Below, in pieces: positions 492-15,561 of a stretch of 64,000 nt of DNA. The translations under genes were made by a program, and so were the position numbers. Each line of letters opens with the position of its first letter. Position 1 is the first letter of the stretch. This DNA is from Promethearchaeia archaeon (GTDB taxonomy: Archaea > Asgardarchaeota > Lokiarchaeia > Sigyniarchaeales > SOKP01): assembly GCA_029856105.1 (NCBI GenBank), contig JAHQWH010000226.1, forward strand, positions 1 to 64,000, given 5' to 3'. The notes below the pieces were generated by a model. It worked only from the letters and a program-made list of their open reading frames with translations. It did not search any database and was not told the DNA's origin.

Positions 492-3400
492 ATGAAAAAT
501 TTAAAACAAATTTCAATTTTGGGAATTATTTTAGCTAGCGTAATACTCAGTTTTTCGTTCTTAAACTTCGCAATTTACATTCCGTATAATGAAATTGAAT
601 CTAAGGAATTACTAAATCCTCGTACTTCACAAGTTGATCCTTTTCTTTATGAGAAATATGTGACAATAGGGGGTAGTTATATAGCAAAAGCGCATTACAT
701 TGCACTAGATAGCTCAAATAATATATACATTACAGGTAATATAAGAATTAATGAAACAGAAACAACTGATGCCTTTTTAGCAAAACTTGATAACAACGGT
801 AATGAAATTTGGTATAAGATTTGGGGAGGAATATACGATGACTCTGGAAGTGGAATTGCGTTTGATTCTTCTGGTGATGTTTACATGGGAGGCTCTACAT
901 CAAGTTTTGGTCCATCTGTACCAAATGCAAATTGGTTCTTAGCAAAATTTGATAATGTCGGAAATCAAATATGGAATTACTCCTGGGGTACTGTTCAAGG
1001 AGAATGGGGCGGTCATATTGCCGTAGATTCCTCAGATTACATTTATTATACCGGATCAACATGGGGACATGGGGGGCCTTCTGCGAACGTGGGATTAGTG
1101 AAATTCAACAGTGCAGGTGCGATTCAATGGGCTCGTTATTGGGGTATTGGTGGATATGATTCACCAAGAGATTTAGTGATTGATACTTCGGATAATATTT
1201 ATATTATTGCAGGCTCGGATAATAGAGGTTTTGGTGGTAGAGATGTAGCTCTTATTAAATATGATAGTGCTGGTGCATTACTTTGGGATACAGCGTGGGG
1301 AAGTACTGGTTATGATGATCCAAAAGGAATAGCCCTTGATAATTTAGGTAATGTTTACATTACTGGAATGACAGATAGTTATGGAGCTGGAGATTATGAT
1401 ATCTTTATTGCAAAATATGATGGTGTTCCTACTCTGCTTTGGAATTTTACTTGGGGAGGTGTAGATTCGGATATTTCAGCAGATTTGGTATTAGATTCAT
1501 CTAATAATATATATATTGCTGGTTATACTGAGAGTTTTGGTTCTGGAAGTAGTGATATTGTATCAATTAAATTTAATAGTTTGGGATATCAACAGTGGAA
1601 TAAAACATGGGGAGGTATTGATATTGAAGAATCTTATCGTATCAGCATCGATTCTTCAAACAACACTTATATCGCTGGAAGGATCGATAGTTTTGATGCA
1701 ATCACATCAAATGCCTTAATCCTTAAACGCAACAGTACGGGGGATGCAGAATGGTTTAAGACTTGGGATGGAGAAAGCAGAGATGAATGCTCTAAGATTG
1801 CTTTTGATTCATTGGGTAATTATTACTTAACGGGATTTACTGAGGTTTTTGGTAAAGGAGGAAGAGACGCAATACTTATCAAATATGATGCTTCTGGACT
1901 TCAACAATGGAAAGTAACCTGGGGAGGACATGAAGCAGAAGAAGCCTATTCTATTGCTATAGATTCTTACGATGATATTTATATCACTGGAAAAACTGAA
2001 AGTTTCGGTCCAGGAGATTCATGTGCGTTTCTTTTAAAATATAACGATACTGGAGATTTGCAGTGGAATCATACATGGGGCGGTAATTATGTTGAATATG
2101 GAAGTGGAATTGCGTTCGATTCTTCTGGAGCTGTTTACATGGGTGGCTCTACATCAAGTTTTGGTCCAGCTGTTCCAAATGCAAACTGGTTCTTAGCAAA
2201 ATTTGATAACGCAGGAAATCAAATATGGAATTACTCCTGGGGTACTGTTCAAGGAGAATGGGGCGGTAATATTGCCATAGATTCCTCAGATTACATTTAC
2301 TATATCGGATCAACATGGGGCCACGGAGGGCCTTCTGCTAATGTGGGATTGGTGAAATTTGATACTGCAGGAGTGATTCAATGGGCTCGTTATTGGGGTA
2401 TTGGTGGTTATGATTCGCCTAGAGATATAGTGATTGATTCCTCAGATAATATATATATTATTGCAGGCTCGGATAATAGAGGCTTTGGTGGTAGGGATGT
2501 AGCATTGATAAAGTATAATAGTTCGGGTACTTTATTATGGGATGATGCTTGGGGAGGTACTGGTTATGATGATCCGAAAGGAATAACACTCGATAATTTA
2601 GGTAATATCTACATTACTGGCATAACGAATAGCTTTGGTGGAGGAGATTACGATATTATGACACTAATCTTTGACGAGTTTGGTTCAATTAAGTGGGAAA
2701 AAATATTTGGTTCTGATGAAGATGATGAAAGTCGTGATATTAAATTCGATTCGTCAAATAACCTTTTTATAGGGGGATATACAAAAAGCTTTGGCGTTGG
2801 AAGTGGTGATATACTCTTATTAAATTATGAAATTGATTTAAATCCTCCTGTAATATCTATAACAGATCCCGAATCTAATGAATTTTGTGGCGTAAATGGA
2901 CCAGATTTCGCAGTGTTGATTAACGAGGACAATATTGATGCTTCATGGTATACTTTAGATGACGGTATAATCAATATTTCATTTTCTGGACTCACTGGTA
3001 CAGTAGATCAAACTGAATGGGAAAAAAAAGGTAATGGAACTGTAAATCTAAATTTCTTTATTCGAGATTTTACGGGTTTTGAAGATGATTCCATGGTTAA
3101 ATTCTGGAAAGACATCATATGTCCCGTATCCTCGATTGATTTTATTCCTCACAGCGGAACTACTATTGTAAACAGTTCTACACAATTTACATTAAGTGCA
3201 AGTGATGGTGACGGATGTGGAGTTTCTTCAATAAAATATAGAATAAACTATGGTACTTGGATTGATTATTCTAGTCCTTTCACACTCGCAAGCCTAAGTT
3301 CAGGAAATCATCAAATTGAATTTTATTCAGTCGACGATTTGGACAATACTGAAAATATTCAAAATATCTACATTCAACTTGTAGATTTTGAATCAATTCC

Positions 3401-3494
3401 AGAAATAAGTGGATATAATCTCTTAATTCTAATCAGTTTAGTTGGAGTTATCTCACTATTAATACTGCGTAAAAAAATTAAATCAAAATATTAA
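492..3494 (+). CDS. Secreted beta-propeller (SBBP-repeat) surface protein with Ig-like domains and Loki-CTERM-type anchor
   Basis: N-terminal hydrophobic signal; many IAxDSSxNIYITG.T.SFG.G..D..L.KYD..G...W...WGG repeats; C-terminal ISGYNLLILISLVGVISLLILRKK. Confidence 0.85.
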   Translation: MKNLKQISILGIILASVILSFSFLNFAIYIPYNEIESKELLNPRTSQVDPFLYEKYVTIGGSYIAKAHYIALDSSNNIYITGNIRINETETTDAFLAKLDNNGNEIWYKIWGGIYDDSGSGIAFDSSGDVYMGGSTSSFGPSVPNANWFLAKFDNVGNQIWNYSWGTVQGEWGGHIAVDSSDYIYYTGSTWGHGGPSANVGLVKFNSAGAIQWARYWGIGGYDSPRDLVIDTSDNIYIIAGSDNRGFGGRDVALIKYDSAGALLWDTAWGSTGYDDPKGIALDNLGNVYITGMTDSYGAGDYDIFIAKYDGVPTLLWNFTWGGVDSDISADLVLDSSNNIYIAGYTESFGSGSSDIVSIKFNSLGYQQWNKTWGGIDIEESYRISIDSSNNTYIAGRIDSFDAITSNALILKRNSTGDAEWFKTWDGESRDECSKIAFDSLGNYYLTGFTEVFGKGGRDAILIKYDASGLQQWKVTWGGHEAEEAYSIAIDSYDDIYITGKTESFGPGDSCAFLLKYNDTGDLQWNHTWGGNYVEYGSGIAFDSSGAVYMGGSTSSFGPAVPNANWFLAKFDNAGNQIWNYSWGTVQGEWGGNIAIDSSDYIYYIGSTWGHGGPSANVGLVKFDTAGVIQWARYWGIGGYDSPRDIVIDSSDNIYIIAGSDNRGFGGRDVALIKYNSSGTLLWDDAWGGTGYDDPKGITLDNLGNIYITGITNSFGGGDYDIMTLIFDEFGSIKWEKIFGSDEDDESRDIKFDSSNNLFIGGYTKSFGVGSGDILLLNYEIDLNPPVISITDPESNEFCGVNGPDFAVLINEDNIDASWYTLDDGIINISFSGLTGTVDQTEWEKKGNGTVNLNFFIRDFTGFEDDSMVKFWKDIICPVSSIDFIPHSGTTIVNSSTQFTLSASDGDGCGVSSIKYRINYGTWIDYSSPFTLASLSSGNHQIEFYSVDDLDNTENIQNIYIQLVDFESIPEISGYNLLILISLVGVISLLILRKKIKSKY
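846..2620 (+). repeat. Intragenic direct duplication of about 520 bp (846-1366 and 2100-2620, offset 1254 bp)
   Basis: Near-identical nucleotide blocks, e.g. GGAAATCAAATATGGAATTACTCCTGGGGTACTGTTCAAGGAGAATGGGGCGGT in both copies. Confidence 0.95.
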
Positions 3495-3566: not shown

Positions 3567-4889
3567 TTAATTTATTTGATAAAAATGTTCTTCAAATTCA
3601 GGCTTTCCCTTATATTTTCCTAAGAATAGCAGTGGAGCCATTTTTATGTTTTTAAAGATATAAGATGGAGCTCGAATCCCTGCTTGTCTCAGCGCTTCTT
3701 GTATGCCGTCAACTTCAGGAGGGCATCCTTTAATCGCGATAAGTTCGTTGATATCTGGATGGTCCTTATTTTTATTATATTGGCATTGTCCAAGAAGTAT
3801 GGTCTTATTCATTCCAGGAGATGGTTCCATGATTTTCCCCGTTAAAATTTCTATATTATCAAAATCCTTACCTTTCCACGCTTCTTTAATTGCCATTAAA
3901 ATAACGCCATTAAAAAAGCTACAATAAGTACACATTGTTTCGTCGTATTTGCGATAACTTATTCCGCCGATACCCGCTTTAGCATAAGAGAGAGGTAATG
4001 TATTGTTATTTTTGTATATGAATTCCCATCCATGAGGAACGGCAAGGTCTTCTATGGTCTCTCCTTTTACTTCAATGTCGGATAAATCTATTGGGCAATT
4101 TCTATCTTTAGCCGCTTGAACCAAATGAGGGACGGCTATAGGGTCAATGCCTAATAAACTCGAACCAACTAAATCTGCTGAAAGAATGTTAGTTGATGCA
4201 ACTATTATGTCACTTCTGCGGGCTTTACCGTCAAAAGTTGGGCCCCTCTCAAGCGTGTAAACCCCATCAATGATTGTAAGACTAGGTGGTGCTTTGTTCG
4301 CTAGTTTAGACACATTATAATGAAGAGTATATTTGGGATCGTCACCATGGAACTTTTTACGCGACGGAATGTTAATCAAACCTTTTAAATTTTTTAACCC
4401 TAAACTGACAACACATTGAGCGTGTGTTTTGAGAACTGGGACATCTATTAAAAAGTCAGATTGAAGCATATCTGAGTTCATTTTTGCGGTTACACCTTCT
4501 GCGAGCTCTACTTTTTCAAATGGGCGCTCAAAAATATCGTATACTTTAATGTCATACCGTTTCTTGAATATATTATATCCAAGCTTTTCGAAGGCATCTT
4601 TAGATGTTTCCCTATCTTTTGGATCTTCTGTAATTATTCCTTCTCCAATGGTGATATCAGTAACACCATGTTCTTTCAGCAATATTAAAATCTCTTCCAT
4701 TACGCTCGAAGTTGTTAGCATACCCCACTTCGGAAAATCACAGTGCCTATTCCAATAGACTAAATTAGGCTTTATGAAAACTTTCGCGCTAGGGTCAAGA
4801 TTTTCGAACCCATTAGCAAGATCAACGGCTTTTCGAACGGATTCCGATCCCTTTTCGTATTTAACAATAGAAACTATCGATTTATTCAT
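3567..4889 (-). CDS. DUF362 domain-containing (Fe-S associated) protein
   Basis: VFIKPNL, PVLKTH, LGLKNLKG, TIIDG motifs; C-terminal CTYC and GCPP. Confidence 0.85.
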   Translation of the reverse strand: MNKSIVSIVKYEKGSESVRKAVDLANGFENLDPSAKVFIKPNLVYWNRHCDFPKWGMLTTSSVMEEILILLKEHGVTDITIGEGIITEDPKDRETSKDAFEKLGYNIFKKRYDIKVYDIFERPFEKVELAEGVTAKMNSDMLQSDFLIDVPVLKTHAQCVVSLGLKNLKGLINIPSRKKFHGDDPKYTLHYNVSKLANKAPPSLTIIDGVYTLERGPTFDGKARRSDIIVASTNILSADLVGSSLLGIDPIAVPHLVQAAKDRNCPIDLSDIEVKGETIEDLAVPHGWEFIYKNNNTLPLSYAKAGIGGISYRKYDETMCTYCSFFNGVILMAIKEAWKGKDFDNIEILTGKIMEPSPGMNKTILLGQCQYNKNKDHPDINELIAIKGCPPEVDGIQEALRQAGIRAPSYIFKNIKMAPLLFLGKYKGKPEFEEHFYQIN

Positions 4890-5626: not shown

Positions 5627-8500
5627 TTAGAAATAGATGCCCTTCTTTCGAGCGAAATATTTAACTAATTCAAAAGATATTATGCATATTAGCGAGATTA
5701 AAAAGCATACAAGCCAATCCAACCCAGTAAGATACATAAACATGAAATTTAAATTCACCGAAGCAAGGGTAACTTGAACCCCCGGAATGTACATGAGTGC
5801 AAGGAATAAACCGAATAACAATCCAATTAATAAGTACATGAATTTAGTACTATCTTCTTTTATGCTCTTTATCAAAGATTTATTCGGTCTTCTTATTTGA
5901 AACACCAAGAACGACTCGCAGAAGAAAATCGTTACCATTAGCATCGTTAGGGTTTTTATTTCGTTCAACGAAGCACCAGTGTCGTATAAAGGCAGAGTTT
6001 CAGGTGAAAAAAGGTAAGCTCCGTTCCAATCGCCAAAATTTATATTCTCTGGAAAAATTGGATAAATTCCAGTAATTGTTGTAAAGTAAACCACTATCAT
6101 GCTGAGTGCCAAAAAAGCCCCGAAAGCAAACAATAAAATAATCGTGTTTTTAGAAAGAATTTCTTCTTCGTTATGAGGTTTTTGCTTCATTACATCTTTA
6201 GATGTCGTATCGAAAGTTAGTATAAGACTTGGAAATAGGTGAACTGTAATGGCAAGAAAAATCCATTGATAGTAGAAAACTTCGTCTAAAAAATAGGGGA
6301 AGTTTAATATTACGGATAATATAAATTGGACGATGCCCTCGAATACGTTAATTGCTATGAAAAAGAATACAACTGCCCTAATACGAGCAAAAATTCCCCG
6401 CCCTTCTTCTATTCCTGTTACAATTGAGGTAAAAGAATCGTCGCTTATTACCATGTCGCTCGCTTCTTTGGCAACATCAGTTCCTTGTATGCCCATAGCT
6501 ATACCTGCATCTGCCATATTTAGAGCTAGTGCATCATTTACACCATCTCCCGTCATAGCGACAACTTGATTAGCATTTTGATATCTTTCTATAATCTCTT
6601 GTTTGTGTTTAGGGGATACCCTAGCAAATACTTTAATTCTACTAAAATCGAAAAATGAACGATTCTTTTTTATATCTTTACCCTCTACTACAATATCGTC
6701 ATCATTTTGAACTATAGATATTTGCTTAGCAATTGCCCTTGCAGTAGCAGGTGAGTCTCCAGTGATCATTACCACATCGACTCCAGCAGCATGGCATTCT
6801 TCTACGCTCTCATTTACACCGTCTCTAGGGGGATCCAAAATCGTTACAAAACCAATATAGATCATGTCTGATTCACACAATTCCCTACTTCTATCGTCTT
6901 CGGTGGGAATTATATCTAATTTTTTATAACATAAACTTAAAATTCTAAATCCTCTTTCAGCATAGTTGTTTGCTATTTTCATCACTTTATCTTTAGTTTC
7001 ACCTAGAAAATCCAATTCTTGGTTATTATACAAGACTTTATTGCATAAAGGAATTAAGATTTCGCTTGCACCTTTAGTGAAGGAATAAAATTTATCTTCT
7101 TTCTTGTAAACTTTAGTCATCCGTTTTACTTTCGAATCAAAGGGATATTCTTTAAAATATTCAAATTCTTCGAGGATATAATCGCCCATGCCTTTTTGGA
7201 ATATAACCATTAAAGCACCTTCCGTTGGAGAGCCAATGACGGTCCAGTTTGGAATGATTCTGCCTGAAATCTCAATCTCATTCTTTACTAAAGCAGAATT
7301 GTTGTTTAAGAATCCAGAAATTAATAGTAATTTAAGCTGTGGAAAATCATCAATGTGTTTCACATAAACCGGATTTTTTGGATCGTCAATTAATATTATT
7401 TCGCCTTCAGGGGTATACCCACTTCCTGTAACCTTATAGGTTGACCCGTTTGTCCAAATGATCGGAATGCTCATTTGATTCTTCGTTAGCGTGCCAGTTT
7501 TATCGCTGCAAACTACACTAACTCGGCCCAAACTATCTACTGAGGCTAAATTTCTAACAATAACGCCATGATGAGCCATTGTTAAAACTCCCGTAAGTAA
7601 AATAATTGTTACTAAAAGAGGGATGTTAATTGGAAGTAGATCCATAGCAGAATTCAAGCTTTTTACGAATTCTAATTCACCAGTAGCCCCCCATACAATC
7701 AATATTATAAGAAGCCAAAATCCTATTACAATTATACCCAACCATTTACCGAAGTTGTTCATTTTCTCTCGGATAGGGATTTCGCTTGTTCCAGCCTCTT
7801 CTAACCCTTGCGATATTTTTCCGATTTCAGTGTCCTTACCTGTCTTTACTGAGATTGCTGTAGCATTGCCTGTCGCGATAAAAGTTCCGTAAAATGTCAT
7901 ATTTTTACGATCACCAATTGAAATATCTTCTTTTTCTAAAGCTATACCTTCTTGAAGCTTTCTTACAAGTTCGGATTCGCCAGTAAGACTCGATTCATTA
8001 ACCTCTAAATTGGAAGATTGAATTAATCTTCCGTCTGCCGGAATCCTATCGCCTTGTTTTAATACTAATAAATCGCCAACTACTACCTCTTTTGTTGGTA
8101 TATCTATTTTTTGGCTATCTCTAATAACTGTGGATGTTGGTGCGGTCATTTCTCTTAAAGCTTTCAATTTTTTCGTAGCTCTATACTGCTGAATAATCGC
8201 AACAATACAGTTAAGACCAACAATCCCAAGAGTTAATAAAATAAAGGACATATTACCTTTGCCACCAAAGAAAGAGGACAAAAATAAGAATAGAGCTCCT
8301 ATTAAGTAAATTACAATTAACCAATTAAACAACGGAGCAAGGTAAATTTTGATGAACCCTTTAGACGCTTTTGGTATTTCGTTTAAGCCATAAAGCTCTA
8401 ACCTTTTTTGCGCTTCGTCTTTCGTCAATCCATTATTCGGATTTGTCTGAAACTTTTTGTAAATTTGCTCTAATTCCATATTATAATAAATTTCTTCCAT
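5627..8500 (-). CDS. P-type ATPase, P2A-like scaffold with non-canonical transport site
   Basis: TGES, DKTGT, KGASE, DPPR, TGD, GDGVND; M4 reads PINIP instead of PEGLP. Confidence 0.95.
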   Translation of the reverse strand: MEEIYYNMELEQIYKKFQTNPNNGLTKDEAQKRLELYGLNEIPKASKGFIKIYLAPLFNWLIVIYLIGALFLFLSSFFGGKGNMSFILLTLGIVGLNCIVAIIQQYRATKKLKALREMTAPTSTVIRDSQKIDIPTKEVVVGDLLVLKQGDRIPADGRLIQSSNLEVNESSLTGESELVRKLQEGIALEKEDISIGDRKNMTFYGTFIATGNATAISVKTGKDTEIGKISQGLEEAGTSEIPIREKMNNFGKWLGIIVIGFWLLIILIVWGATGELEFVKSLNSAMDLLPINIPLLVTIILLTGVLTMAHHGVIVRNLASVDSLGRVSVVCSDKTGTLTKNQMSIPIIWTNGSTYKVTGSGYTPEGEIILIDDPKNPVYVKHIDDFPQLKLLLISGFLNNNSALVKNEIEISGRIIPNWTVIGSPTEGALMVIFQKGMGDYILEEFEYFKEYPFDSKVKRMTKVYKKEDKFYSFTKGASEILIPLCNKVLYNNQELDFLGETKDKVMKIANNYAERGFRILSLCYKKLDIIPTEDDRSRELCESDMIYIGFVTILDPPRDGVNESVEECHAAGVDVVMITGDSPATARAIAKQISIVQNDDDIVVEGKDIKKNRSFFDFSRIKVFARVSPKHKQEIIERYQNANQVVAMTGDGVNDALALNMADAGIAMGIQGTDVAKEASDMVISDDSFTSIVTGIEEGRGIFARIRAVVFFFIAINVFEGIVQFILSVILNFPYFLDEVFYYQWIFLAITVHLFPSLILTFDTTSKDVMKQKPHNEEEILSKNTIILLFAFGAFLALSMIVVYFTTITGIYPIFPENINFGDWNGAYLFSPETLPLYDTGASLNEIKTLTMLMVTIFFCESFLVFQIRRPNKSLIKSIKEDSTKFMYLLIGLLFGLFLALMYIPGVQVTLASVNLNFMFMYLTGLDWLVCFLISLICIISFELVKYFARKKGIYF

Positions 8501-8625
8501 TAAGATTTCTCCCGCGACTTTTTATGAAATTTTATTATTAAATTAAAAAATGAAATAGTTATAATAAATAGACTATAGAAGTAATTGTTTTTATTTTATG
8601 TGTTTTTTGGTTAAATGAAAAAATA

Positions 8626-11502
8626 TTAGAAAATGATATCTTTTTTTCTAAATAAATACTTCAAAAGTTCGATTCCAATTAATCCTGGTAATGTCAATAA
8701 AATGCACATTATCCAATCTGTCCCACTTAGAAATAAGAAGTTGATCTGAAAGTTTAAACCGAATATATCGTTCACGTAATAATTTACCGAGTGCGAGAAT
8801 ACAATATAGAGGATGTGTAAAGCTAGAGTAAATAGACTTACAATTAACAAAGAAAGACAGAATTCTTCCTTTAAACTTTTTAAAATAGATTTATTTGGGC
8901 GCCTAAAAGTCCAGATAAATGTCGTTTCAACAATAAATAACGTTGTGATGAACATAGTCCTTGCTTTTTGAGCAATTAATTCGTTGGGAGTAGCTCCAAT
9001 CGGAATATAGCTAATATTCGGGTTAAGGTTCCATTCGTTTAATGGAATCATTCCCCCTAAGGTTAGTTGAAGCACTAAAACCAGGCCTAAACCCATTAAT
9101 AACGCTTGTATTAACATCATAATCCACATATTTTTGTTTAATAATTGTTGTTCGTCTCTAGGTGGTTCCTTCATTACATCCGAGGGATGTTTATCGATTA
9201 CCAAGGCTAAAGCCGGTAGTGAGTGGACTATTCCAAAAATATAAATATGTTGCCATTCTGAACTGAATAAATCGAAGAATGGGATGAATTCGTAGGTAAA
9301 AAATATGGTTGCTTCCATTATGTTTAAACAGATGAAAAAATATATAATGGTGCGAATTTTAGCAAATAGCCCACGACCAATCTTTACTCCCTTGACAATC
9401 GAAGAAAAATTATCGTCGCTTATGACCATGTCCGCAGTTTCTTTCGCTACATCTGTCCCCGTAATACCCATAGCTATACCGGCATTAGCAAGCTTTAACG
9501 CTAAAGAGTCGTTGATCCCATCCCCAGTCATAGCACATATGTGATCTTGTGATTGATATTTTTCTACTATTATTTCTTTGTCAGAAGGATCGACTCTTGC
9601 AAAAACTGAAACATTATTGAAATCGCTATCGTCTAAATTGGAAATATCGGCTCCTTCTACTACTAAATCTCCCTCTTTATAAATTCTCATTTGTGCGGCA
9701 ATCGTTTTAGCAGTAGCGGGGTGGTCTCCAGTGATCATAACGGTTTTTATACCCCCAGATTCGCTCTCTTCCACAGCAGATCTTACGTCTGGGCGTGGTG
9801 GGTCTAAAATTGAAATAAAACTCAAAAAAATTAGATTGGATTCAGTTTTTTCTCTATTTAAACTGTTTAAATCTTTAATTTTCTCAATATTCTTATAGGC
9901 AACAGCTAAAGTTCGGTATCCTTGGTTGGCTCGCAACTGGATTTTTTTTAAAAGCTCTTCTTTTATATCTTCGTCTAACATCTTTATTTCGCCGTTGACT
10001 TCGATTTTGTTTGAAATGTCTAAGATTCTTTCGGGAGCTCCTTTAGTAAAAGCAAAATTACCTTTAGGATTTGATTTAGACTTACATATAGTGGTCATCC
10101 GTTTGATTTCAGAGCTGAATGAAAATTCTTTCAAAACTTCGTACTTATCTTTTATATCGTAATTAATATATCCCGCTTTTTCAGATAGTACTAATAATGC
10201 TGCCTCTGTTGGTGACCCTAAAGCTTTTCTTACGGCCATTTCGTTTACATTTTTTAGTCGAACCTTAACATCCTCGTATATTAATTTAACATTGTTGTTT
10301 AATACTATTGAATCTATAAATTTCTGAAACGTAAGACTATCTTTTAACTCAACTTCGTTGTTATTTTCAAGAATTATTCCCTCGGTATCATAACCCGAAC
10401 CTGAAACATGATATTCTATATTGTTTATCCAAAATCTTTCTACGGTCATTTCGTTTTTGGTGATAGTTCCTGTTTTGTCTGCACAGATTACCGAAACTCG
10501 ACCAAGAGATTCAATCGAAGCTAAGTTTTTTATAATTACCCCACTTTGAGCCATATTTAATACACCAGTTATGAGGACAAGCGTTGTAAGGAGCGGTAAG
10601 TTTATGGGCATGATATTCATTGACCTTAGAATTGAACTTATTAAGGCATCGCTAATAAAATCTCCATATAAATTGCCTTCTATCCCTAAAAGTACAAATT
10701 TATAGGTAATTAAGATTATTAAATTGATAATAACTATAGATCCAAGGATATAACCTAACCTATTCAATTTACGCGTCAATGGGATATCTTCAATGCTACC
10801 CATTTCATTTAATTGATCCGAGATTTTACCAATCTCCGTATTTTTTCCCGTTCCAACCACTAAGGCTTTTCCCCTACCTGTGTGAATGTATGTCCCCATA
10901 AACACCATGTTAGTTCGTTTCTGGAGTGGAACTTTGTTATTTTCTAGGCGATGTTTGCCTTTTTCTACAGGCTCACTCTCTCCGCTAAGTGGAGCTTCGT
11001 CTATGGTTAAATTGGTAAATTCGATAATTCTAGCATCTGCAGCGATTTTATCGCCTTGTCTTAACAAGATAACGTCTCCAGGCACGATTTCTCTGGTAGG
11101 AATCTCAAATTGAACTCCATCCCTCAAAACCGTTGTCTTTAAAGCAGCGATTTTTCTTAAGGATTCTAGCGCTTTTTGGGCTCTGAATTGTTGAACAATT
11201 ACCGTTGTCGAATTCATAATGACTACAGCAAAAGTTATAATCGTAGAACTTGGGGAGCCAAGAATCAAAATAATTGTTCCTGATATAATTAGAATAATAA
11301 TTAAAAAATTAAAAATTGGAGCCAAATAAATTTTCCATAAAGACTTCTTAATTTTAGGCAACTCGTTATAACCATATTTAAGATATCTACTCTCTATTTC
11401 TGAAGACTTCAAACCATTATTCGGATCTGTTTGAAATTTTGTAATTAATTCATCTATTGATTGAGTTAGTAATTCTTCAGAACGAACTTGGATTAAATTC
11501 AT
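8626..11502 (-). CDS. P-type ATPase, P2A-like scaffold with non-canonical transport site (tandem paralogue)
   Basis: SGES, DKTGT, KGAPE, DPPR, TGD, GDGIND; M4 reads NIMPINLP. Confidence 0.95.
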   Translation of the reverse strand: MNLIQVRSEELLTQSIDELITKFQTDPNNGLKSSEIESRYLKYGYNELPKIKKSLWKIYLAPIFNFLIIILIISGTIILILGSPSSTIITFAVVIMNSTTVIVQQFRAQKALESLRKIAALKTTVLRDGVQFEIPTREIVPGDVILLRQGDKIAADARIIEFTNLTIDEAPLSGESEPVEKGKHRLENNKVPLQKRTNMVFMGTYIHTGRGKALVVGTGKNTEIGKISDQLNEMGSIEDIPLTRKLNRLGYILGSIVIINLIILITYKFVLLGIEGNLYGDFISDALISSILRSMNIMPINLPLLTTLVLITGVLNMAQSGVIIKNLASIESLGRVSVICADKTGTITKNEMTVERFWINNIEYHVSGSGYDTEGIILENNNEVELKDSLTFQKFIDSIVLNNNVKLIYEDVKVRLKNVNEMAVRKALGSPTEAALLVLSEKAGYINYDIKDKYEVLKEFSFSSEIKRMTTICKSKSNPKGNFAFTKGAPERILDISNKIEVNGEIKMLDEDIKEELLKKIQLRANQGYRTLAVAYKNIEKIKDLNSLNREKTESNLIFLSFISILDPPRPDVRSAVEESESGGIKTVMITGDHPATAKTIAAQMRIYKEGDLVVEGADISNLDDSDFNNVSVFARVDPSDKEIIVEKYQSQDHICAMTGDGINDSLALKLANAGIAMGITGTDVAKETADMVISDDNFSSIVKGVKIGRGLFAKIRTIIYFFICLNIMEATIFFTYEFIPFFDLFSSEWQHIYIFGIVHSLPALALVIDKHPSDVMKEPPRDEQQLLNKNMWIMMLIQALLMGLGLVLVLQLTLGGMIPLNEWNLNPNISYIPIGATPNELIAQKARTMFITTLFIVETTFIWTFRRPNKSILKSLKEEFCLSLLIVSLFTLALHILYIVFSHSVNYYVNDIFGLNFQINFLFLSGTDWIMCILLTLPGLIGIELLKYLFRKKDIIF

Positions 11503-11611: not shown

Positions 11612-12574
11612 TTAAAGGTCTAACTCTTGCGGGTCCCCTAAAATCTCCTTTAATTCATTATATTTTTTTCTAATTGTCGTGCTTGAGAATCGACTGGTGC
11701 GTTCAACGATACTTTGAGTAAAAATCTTGCGATTCTCTAAGGATTGGCCAATGTAATAGATTAAACCCGCTGTAAATGCTTTGTAATTCAAGCTTTGAAT
11801 TTGGATGTAAGTAATTTTGTTTAAGATTTCATTGACTTTTAACTGCATATCTAATTTTAATTGATTGTATTCAGTTTTATTGGTAAGATGTTGTTTGACA
11901 TCTTTAAATAATATGTTATTCAAATCTTTTTGGAACAAGATTTTAATTTTATTTTTTATTTGTTCTTCTAAGTTAGAACCACTTTCGGCAATTTCCAGCC
12001 TTTTTTCTGTTCTTTTGACCTTTAACATAGCGTTAGAAAGCATCTTTTTGTTTATTTTATGTCCTAATTCTCTTGTTCTTTTAATAAATTCTTCAATTCT
12101 CACGTTTGTAGTTTCTTTTATCTCCATCCATACTATTGCAAGAAAGATAATGACCATATTTTCGTATGTTTGTCGATGATGTTTGTTATATAGCAAATAT
12201 TTTGCTTTAATTTCTTGATATTTTACAGAATCTATATTTAGGCCAATGCCATAACCCTTTAACAAGTCAATCGTCTTTTTCTGTTCAGAAAAGTTGCTTT
12301 GATAGTCCCGAAACCATATCTTTAAAGTATTGATTTGATCGTATCGTTTTTTAGTCTTTGGGTCCTGAATTGCTTTTGAATTACTTGTTCGAATTTTTCT
12401 TTCATATTCTAATCGGGAATCAGAAAAATAGTTTGAAGGAGAGGATGTTTCAAAAGCAACATAATCTTCTAAGATTATACCACAATCTTGGCATACAAAA
12501 TACCCACTCTCTTGCTTTACGTTTTTATGGGTACAAGCGGTTAATTCCTTACCATTTTTTTTTTTATCGTTCAA
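11612..12574 (-). CDS. Divergent TFB/TFIIB-like protein (Zn ribbon + cyclin-like folds)
   Basis: CxH...VCQDCG Zn ribbon; C-terminal AGLIYY..TQS.V......S.TTIRK.Y.EL HTH resembling the TFB C-terminal repeat. Confidence 0.7.
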   Translation of the reverse strand: MNDKKKNGKELTACTHKNVKQESGYFVCQDCGIILEDYVAFETSSPSNYFSDSRLEYERKIRTSNSKAIQDPKTKKRYDQINTLKIWFRDYQSNFSEQKKTIDLLKGYGIGLNIDSVKYQEIKAKYLLYNKHHRQTYENMVIIFLAIVWMEIKETTNVRIEEFIKRTRELGHKINKKMLSNAMLKVKRTEKRLEIAESGSNLEEQIKNKIKILFQKDLNNILFKDVKQHLTNKTEYNQLKLDMQLKVNEILNKITYIQIQSLNYKAFTAGLIYYIGQSLENRKIFTQSIVERTSRFSSTTIRKKYNELKEILGDPQELDL

Positions 12575-14613: not shown

Positions 14614-15561
14614 TTAATTTAATTTCTCTTTGATTTGTTTTGCCCTACTTCGTAGAGTTACCTCAGTGATCTTTGCTACATCGGCTACCAAGGATTGAGT
14701 TTTTTTAATCGCTCCGTCTTTAGCTGCGATATAAATACAAGCCGCGGCTAAACCTTTTGGATCTTTTCCAGTTCGCGCTAACCCATTTTTAGATGCGGTT
14801 CTCAACATTTCTATAGCTACTTTTTGAACTTTCATGGGTAAGTCTAACTCGTTCCCAAATCGAAAAACAAGCTTCTCTGCCGTAATTGGCTGATATCTTA
14901 GGCCCAATTCGGGTAGAATTTCGCGAATAATCATTGAAAGGCTTCTATGTACCGTTCTTCGCGGCGTGAGGGACGCTTCACAGACTTCGTCTAATAATCG
15001 AGGGAAATCGTGAACCCTTATCGCGGCGTATAAAGAACCTGCTATAAACCCATTAATAGATCTTCCCATTGTTAGCTTCTTTTTAGCTACAATACTATAA
15101 ATCTTCCATGCCGTTTCTGAAATATATTCTGGAATGTTTAATTTTGAGGTGAGCATCTTCAACTTAGGTTTTGCTTCCCAGAAGTTCCTTTCAATACTTG
15201 ATATTAAAGAATTTTGAATTTTTGATAAGCGAGAAAATAAAGCTTGCTCTTTAGGACCTATTGATTTTCCTTTTGAGTCTGTCTTTGTGGTAGGAAGCAT
15301 TGTTCGAGGGCCAAAATCCCTCCAACGGGGCTCTGTTCTTCTTCTATTCTGTATTTCTTCCACAGTATATGCCCTTCGCTCATTCCCTACGTAAGTTCGT
15401 TCTGCAATCATACCACAGTTAAGACATACTTTATTCCCATCACGTTCTTCAATAGATGGATTATCACAACACTTAATACTACTTGTAGAGGACAAATTAT
15501 CTTGATCTGCATTCTTAGTTTTTATTAGATCACGGTAATTACTATTCATATTATACATCAC
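14614..15561 (-). CDS. tfb: Transcription initiation factor IIB (TFB)
   Basis: Zn ribbon CC...VCLNCG; E.RAYT B-reader-like segment; GRSI and GKDPKGLAAACIY; TQ..VA..A..TEVTLR. Confidence 0.92.
   Translation of the reverse strand: MMYNMNSNYRDLIKTKNADQDNLSSTSSIKCCDNPSIEERDGNKVCLNCGMIAERTYVGNERRAYTVEEIQNRRRTEPRWRDFGPRTMLPTTKTDSKGKSIGPKEQALFSRLSKIQNSLISSIERNFWEAKPKLKMLTSKLNIPEYISETAWKIYSIVAKKKLTMGRSINGFIAGSLYAAIRVHDFPRLLDEVCEASLTPRRTVHRSLSMIIREILPELGLRYQPITAEKLVFRFGNELDLPMKVQKVAIEMLRTASKNGLARTGKDPKGLAAACIYIAAKDGAIKKTQSLVADVAKITEVTLRSRAKQIKEKLN

Follow-up and report, generated by a model that had tools for sequence, protein, structure and literature searches.

Specificity in P-type ATPases is read from a handful of residues in transmembrane helices M4, M5, M6, and M8. 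In SERCA, Ca2+ site II consists of E309, N796, and D800, and site I of N768, E771, T799, D800, and E908; D800 ligates both Ca2+ ions. Of these two sites, the known single-site Ca2+ pumps LMCA1 and SPCA retain site II. We describe two adjacent genes, pump A and pump B, in a stretch of 64,000 nucleotides (the window) from contig JAHQWH010000226.1 of a Promethearchaeia archaeon (assembly GCA_029856105.1). Their products belong to a family that has altered these helix residues and kept the engine. We refer to it as the PxN/His family, after a Pro-x-Asn in M4 and a His in M6. Sequence comparison leads us to favor, with somewhat better than even confidence, a joint reading: this clade is an old, essentially Asgard-archaeal offshoot of the prokaryotic P2A (SERCA/PMR1/LMCA1-like) Ca2+-ATPases, and its members most likely perform active transport of a small cation other than Ca2+.

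Both genes encode predicted ATP-driven membrane pumps with complete E1/E2 phosphoenzyme machinery. The proteins are 42% identical across their full length, and each matches the Pfam domains Cation_ATPase_N, E1-E2_ATPase, Cation_ATPase, Hydrolase, and Cation_ATPase_C. Residue numbers such as Q56, N292, and H754 follow pump A. The features are as follows.

5627-8500, minus strand: pump A, an intact type-II P-type ATPase of the PxN/His family, 957 aa (open reading frame and translation)
8501-8625, minus strand: AT-rich spacer between the pump genes, 125 bp
8626-11502, minus strand: pump B, an intact paralogue from another subclade of the PxN/His family, 958 aa (open reading frame and translation)
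7973-7984, minus strand: pump A, dephosphorylation motif TGES of the A-domain
10975-10986, minus strand: pump B, A-domain motif SGES
7613-7645, minus strand: pump A, M4 MDLLPINIPLL, with P290, I291 at the SERCA E309 position, and N292 at the G310 position
10588-10620, minus strand: pump B, M4 MNIMPINLPLL
7490-7504, minus strand: pump A, phosphorylation motif DKTGT (D333)
10465-10479, minus strand: pump B, phosphorylation motif DKTGT (D342)
6533-6553, minus strand: pump A, TGDGVND
9508-9528, minus strand: pump B, TGDGIND
6338-6349, minus strand: pump A, M5 NVFE, with N718 and E721 equivalent to SERCA N768 and E771
9313-9324, minus strand: pump B, M5 NIME
6230-6253, minus strand: pump A, M6 AITVHLFP, with H754 in place of SERCA D800
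9214-9237, minus strand: pump B, M6 FGIVHSLP, with the same His as pump A
5912-5926, minus strand: pump A, M8 FFCES, with E862 equivalent to SERCA E908
8923-8937, minus strand: pump B, M8 FIVET, with the same Glu as pump A

The initial annotation of this DNA had reported intact catalytic motifs in both paralogues, unusual M4 and M6 motifs, and a retained M5 NxxE and M8 Glu; all of these are located at the positions above. Two intact pumps with altered M4 and M6 are thus confirmed as a real observation. The altered motifs are not a product of chance, because all members of a monophyletic family share these substitutions.

That family was delimited by an exhaustive HMMER search over 1.84 billion cluster representatives. 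Approximately 35 representatives (50% identity clusters) score above ~520 bits, and all carry the PxN/His signature: P-[IVLFW]-N-[ILF]-[PVI] in M4, N-x-x-E in M5, His in M6, and Glu in M8. Matches below ~520 bits are all canonical, with PEGLP, NxxE, and N-x-x-T-D. In an alignment of 32 family representatives, P290 and E721 are invariant, and N292, H754, and E862 are each at least 90% conserved. Asn occupies position 292 in 93% of the family, and His replaces D800 in 98%. At the E309 position, hydrophobicity is conserved (I, V, L, F, or W), but Ile as such is not. The catalytic residues D333, K334, G336, T337, T339, E175, T580-G581-D582, and G651-D652-G653-x-N655-D656 are invariant over the same 32 representatives.

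Two alignments agree on the register of these helices. The HMMER alignment to Listeria LMCA1 (6zhf) pairs P-I-N with P-E-A in M4 and, in M6, the His with the Asp. A MAFFT alignment with ~95 canonical relatives likewise aligns Ile with SERCA E309, Asn with G310, and His with D800. The SERCA N796 and T799 positions are non-polar or variable in the family; the former is A750 in pump A, or Phe, and is often Tyr, Phe, or Trp across members, and the L65 position is Tyr in most of them. The site-II Ca2+ ligands E309, N796, and D800 are therefore missing as a set, with Glu at the E309 position in 0% of the family.

The family forms a single clade with a support of 100 and a stem of 0.32-0.37, both in a FastTree analysis of 79 rows and in an IQ-TREE analysis of 45 rows (LG+G4). 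Rooted on E. coli MgtA, this clade sits among canonical prokaryotic P2A lineages whose branching is poorly resolved. Both pumps carry the M4 P-x-N, M5 N-x-x-E, M6 His, and M8 Glu, and are placed inside the fully supported clade. At least five subclades make up the family. The two pumps fall in different ones, pump B next to sequences labelled Helarchaeota. The duplication behind the tandem pair is therefore old rather than recent, and the two copies are diverged paralogues that are probably sub-specialized. The clade is apparently undescribed: a literature search found no description of this Asgard P-type ATPase clade. The initial annotation had suggested a possible Asgard subfamily, and the clade and its fixed PxN/Glu/His/Glu signature bear this out. 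It had also proposed a phylogeny with P2A, P2B, P3, P4, and P5 reference sequences. The part that concerns prokaryotic P2A pumps is covered by these trees; eukaryotic P2B-D, P3A, P4, and P5 sequences stand outside them and are compared instead through curated hidden Markov model (HMM) scores and motifs.

Branching order within the family gives a sequence of changes. The two deepest subclades have PWNFP/PWSFP and PFNFP/PVNFP in M4. They retain the canonical M1/M2 residues Q56, D59, L65, and Glu at position 109, and the deepest member retains the canonical GDGVNDAP. In both subclades, E309 has nevertheless already given way to an aromatic side chain, G310 to Asn or Ser, N796 to Tyr or Trp, and D800 to His. 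The majority of the family, which branches later and to which both genes of the window belong, carries Q56P, D59N, E105Q, and E109Q, by which a pair of Glu in M2 becomes Gln. The same majority has GDGVNDAL in place of GDGVNDAP, an Arg in place of Ser after M8, and inserts in loops L7/8 and L9/10. Since the deep branches combine an altered M4 and M6 with a canonical M1 and M2, the site was rebuilt first and the acidic cytoplasmic funnel was neutralized later. A member of the deepest subclade (P0152) is 37-41% identical to bacterial PMR1-type pumps, about as near as it is to other family members, which fits an origin of the family from a prokaryotic P2A pump.

Curated NCBIfam models place the pumps within the superfamily and below the cut-offs of nine of its classes. 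Both exceed the cut-off of the superfamily model TIGR01494 (289 and 260 bits versus 62.3). Against the models of nine classes, the scores in bits for pump A and pump B are as follows.

PMR1-type (TIGR01522): 460 and 453, cut-off 798.3
SERCA-type (TIGR01116): 421 and 435, cut-off 703.4
ENA-type: 427 and 405, cut-off 645
P2C: 377 and 356, cut-off 946
PMCA-type: 371 and 386, cut-off 507
P3A (TIGR01647): 340 and 330, cut-off 615.5
P3B: 282 and 311, cut-off 610.75
P5 (TIGR01657): 231 and 241, cut-off 618
P4 (TIGR01652): 111 and 97, cut-off 431

Both pumps fall under all nine cut-offs; the PMR1-type model ranks first and the P4 model last. Other family members reach 420-520 bits on the PMR1- and SERCA-type models and are also under the cut-offs, and a canonical representative (P0160) scores 726 bits, over the SERCA-type cut-off. 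The predicted fold points in the same direction. An AlphaFold2 model of pump A has a mean predicted local distance difference test value (pLDDT) of 81.6 and a predicted template modelling score (pTM) of 0.76, with low confidence only in the L7/8 insert. P2A or P2C pumps (SPCA1, SERCA, and the Na,K- and H,K-ATPases) account for each of its top 49 Foldseek matches, and the best is SPCA1 in the E2P state, with a template modelling (TM) score of 0.72. The pumps thus combine a SERCA-like fold with a type-II architecture of Cation_ATPase_N, ten transmembrane helices, and Cation_ATPase_C.

This architecture is shared with the P2A pumps LMCA1 (6zhf), SPCA1/PMR1 (8iwt), and SERCA1/2, as are TGES, DKTGT, TGDGxND, the M5 NxxE, and the M8 Glu, and these pumps provide the best sequence, HMM, and fold matches. 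The family differs from them in the residues of the transport site: hydrophobic or aromatic at E309, Asn at G310, hydrophobic or aromatic at N796, and His at D800. In most members, it also differs in the neutralized funnel, the GDGVNDAL motif, and the loop inserts.

The isoleucine in M4 had led the initial annotation to a different comparison, with the P4 lipid flippases. Many family members do share with ATP8A1/ATP8A2 and Drs2 an Ile at the position of the PEGL Glu. On this resemblance, and on the proximity of the lineage to eukaryotes, one could propose that the PxN/His pumps are ancestors or sisters of the eukaryotic flippases. We regard such descent as having next to no probability. The M4 motif is P-I-N-I/L-P in place of the P4 PISL, and its conserved residue is the Asn that follows the Ile. 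The Ile itself is derived within the family, since the deepest branches have Trp or Phe. P3 H+-ATPases such as AHA2 also have Ile or Val at the E309-equivalent position (PMC4937031), and so Ile is not diagnostic of flippases. P4 hallmarks include DGET and an M5 Lys (ATP8A2 K873) just before the M5 Asn (PMC4937031). The family has TGES or SGES, as the initial annotation had itself cautioned, keeps the second M4 Pro and the M5 and M8 Glu, and has I, L, V, or A before the M5 Asn, with Lys in no row of the alignment. No P4 structure appears among the top 49 fold matches. Across 400 Asgard genomes, none has a match to the P4 model over its cut-off, and the best reaches 103 bits. Nesting inside prokaryotic P2A had been named beforehand as evidence against P4 ancestry, and it is what the MgtA-rooted tree displays. 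A lipid substrate or P4 ancestry therefore has essentially no support, and the family has no bearing on the origin of lipid flippases.

Another parallel in M4 is found in the P3A H+-ATPases. The proton acceptor in M6 of AHA2 is an Asp. AHA2 and Pma1 resemble the family in a hydrophobic Ile or Val after the M4 Pro and in a retained second Pro (PIAMP/PVGLP-like); a single small-ion site and independence from a beta subunit would be further points of likeness. The family differs in that the AHA2 Asp position is His, and the HMM ranking does not group it with P3-type pumps.

The varied, bulky residues of M4 and M6 raise the possibility that the substrate is large or organic, for instance a lipid head-group, a polyamine, or some other organic cation, by convergence with P5B or P4 pumps. 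The hydrophobic or aromatic E309 position, the frequent aromatic at N796, the Tyr at L65, the entry funnel without acidic residues, and the family-specific inserts in L7/8 and L9/10 would all suit it. We consider it doubtful, and give it very little weight: the P4 and P5 models (97-111 bits versus 431 and 231-241 versus 618) give the lowest scores of the type II-V models, and DGET, the P4 M5 Lys, and PP(E/A)LP are all absent. At the P5 M4 position, the pumps have LPINIP, with no double Pro. The model PF03381 for CDC50, the beta subunit of P4A flippases, has no match in the 92%-complete genome, in a search run without a positive control, and none among the neighbors of the pumps. The second M4 Pro is mostly retained. 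Furthermore, the family conserves two buried Glu and a His completely or almost completely, a pattern seen in ion sites. A full new functional class, where an aromatic/hydrophobic M4/M6 pocket with buried Glu and His would carry such a non-metal substrate, is slightly less probable again. If true, it would represent an independent route from ion pump to large-substrate transporter, parallel to eukaryotic P4 and P5, in the archaeal lineage closest to eukaryotes.

The conserved polar residues suggest how the favored small-cation pump might work. Judged by homology with SERCA, they would form a putative binding site, and an ion site is suggested by the invariance or near-invariance of two buried Glu. 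In LMCA1 and SPCA, site II is the one retained and site I the one lost; the LMCA1-like sequence in our alignment has lost site I through Ala in M5 and Arg in M8. The PxN/His family does the reverse, such that its transport site would be the opposite of that in the known single-site Ca2+ pumps. Site II would be erased by the hydrophobic or aromatic residues at E309 and N796 and the change of D800 to His. The site-I ligands M5 Asn, M5 Glu, and M8 Glu would be kept, and the new M6 His and M4 Asn would join them. In the later-branching majority, both window genes included, the acidic M1/M2 cytoplasmic entry funnel would in addition be neutralized. Complete phosphoenzyme machinery leads us to infer a normal Post-Albers cycle. 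In each cycle, one small non-Ca2+ cation would be moved at the Glu/Glu/His/Asn/Asn site. The most likely candidates, we judge, are protons or a metal (a transition or other divalent one).

The pumps may instead still transport Ca2+ (or Mn2+/Mg2+), through a single site-I-like pocket in place of site II. The conserved equivalents of the SERCA site-I ligands N768, E771, and E908 are consistent with this, as are top HMM and fold matches to Ca2+ pumps. Databases annotate the family as Ca2+-transporting ATPases, and a transportome survey lists the Asgard P2 pumps as putative Ca2+-ATPases (PMC7997004). We nonetheless find continued Ca2+ transport improbable, though the least so of the alternatives. 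In 98% of the family, His takes the place of the Asp that serves both Ca2+ ions in SERCA, E309 and N796 are gone, and the acidic M1/M2 entry residues are neutralized in most members. Scores fall 180-340 bits short of the cut-offs of the Ca2+-pump equivalogs. The view in the initial annotation that these are not ordinary Ca2+ pumps is upheld by the lost site-II ligands and these scores. The Ca2+-ATPase label that databases give to PxN/His proteins is probably wrong, and such a mislabel feeds claims on Ca2+ signaling in the archaeal relatives of eukaryotes.

A canonical Ca2+-type pump in the same genome also argues against Ca2+ transport by the pair. It has the PEGL/NxxE/NxxTD pattern, and the genome encodes two P1B-like pumps as well; the PxN/His pair therefore fills no obvious Ca2+ or heavy-metal gap. 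The canonical pump shares the architecture of pumps A and B at ~35% identity, and differs in having a standard Ca2+-type site with VPEGLV, NFDE, and NIATDGIP. In both trees, it groups with canonical lineages. Its gene is split over the ends of contigs C168 (959-3165) and C206 (reverse strand), with an overlap of ~40 residues; the split is an assembly break, not a broken gene.

Several points weigh against a small cation other than Ca2+ as the substrate. The proposed site takes its geometry from homology with SERCA. The kept ligands of the Glu771 and Glu908 type could bind Ca2+ or Mn2+, and the hydrophobic or aromatic E309 and N796 positions, with a neutral funnel, would also suit an organic cation. 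The gene context carries no hint of a substrate. Finally, the eukaryotic P2B-D, P3A, P4, and P5 classes enter the comparison by curated HMM scores and motifs, outside the trees.

The family is widespread in Asgard archaea. A profile of the family matches 382 of 400 Asgard genomes at E<=1e-100, a count that includes canonical pumps. In calibration, canonical PEGL pumps reach 800-916 bits against this profile, the top score at E ~1e-275; thresholds looser than ~1e-290 admit ordinary Ca2+-type pumps, and only matches with E=0 (approximately 1000 bits or more) are safe. At this level, ~280 of the 400 genomes (~70%) have a family-level match, usually in two copies, a lower bound with two candidates scored per genome. 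Such matches occur in 18 of 33 sampled family-level groups, and all 30 of the top loci that were fetched carry the family signature. The absence of the family from several Asgard lineages is genuine: genomes G117 and G303, each a single contig and 98-100% complete, have only PE[GAS]L pumps and no family member, as do genomes G007 and G085. Genome G127 has a deep-branching PWNFP member. This large and old family, present in ~70% of the sampled Asgard genomes, has His at the central Asp position and would have swapped the SERCA site that it uses. Knowing what it transports would give the superfamily a new specificity class and shed light on how Asgard archaea control their ions.

With one exception, the named members are Asgard, with Promethearchaeota, Lokiarchaeota/Lokiarchaeia, Helarchaeota, Odinarchaeota, Hodarchaeota, and Hermodarchaeota labels. 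The 80 named non-Asgard relatives that were inspected (bacteria, DPANN, and methanogens) are all PE[GA]L-type, none with PxN; they come from the matches listed in a contig scan, which is not a census of the family outside Asgard. The exception is a member with PINIV and His in a Korarchaeota-labelled metagenome-assembled genome (GCA_012974725.1, contig JABAHQ010001742.1). The same contig bears a gene for an Arf/Ras/Roc-type small GTPase, as well as C25 peptidases. The taxonomic assignment could be mistaken, or the contig could come from an Asgard archaeon.

Tandem pairs of pump genes are found in more than 20 genomes of the family-level group to which the window belongs. In the window, the spacer has a T-run after the pump B stop codon and TATA-like A/T boxes before pump A, from which we infer separate promoters for the two genes. 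The neighborhood is syntenic in the Lokiarchaeon GCA_013375495.1, in the order nitroreductase, TFB, two small open reading frames, ATPase, ATPase, GNAT, and DUF362. Elsewhere, the family gene occurs singly and amid unrelated genes. The seven neighborhoods examined share no recurrent partner or regulator gene, and no accessory subunit appears to be needed. On one Helarchaeota contig (452-1330 and 7981-9114), a deep-branching PWNFP-type member (P0305) lies near a gene for VIT1, an Fe/Mn transporter, and upstream of a protein with faint matches to ArsR-type helix-turn-helix domains. This single occurrence is a weak hint of metal homeostasis.

Other genes of the window were observed in passing. 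An open reading frame of 1000 aa at 492-3494 (plus strand) has an N-terminal hydrophobic segment, a C-terminal transmembrane anchor, and many short Gly/Asp/Ser/Tyr-rich repeats of beta-propeller type. It contains a long internal near-duplicate, in which residues ~95-270 recur at ~520-700, and it probably encodes a surface protein. Immediately upstream of pump B, at 11612-12574 (minus strand), lies an open reading frame of 320 aa with an N-terminal C-x-H...CxxC zinc-ribbon-like motif and no Pfam match. A 320-aa reading frame, also with no Pfam match, occupies the same syntenic place (3910-4872) in a second Lokiarchaeon. A bona fide TFIIB/TFB gene is nearby at 14614-15561, and the 11612-12574 product may be a divergent TFB-like factor.

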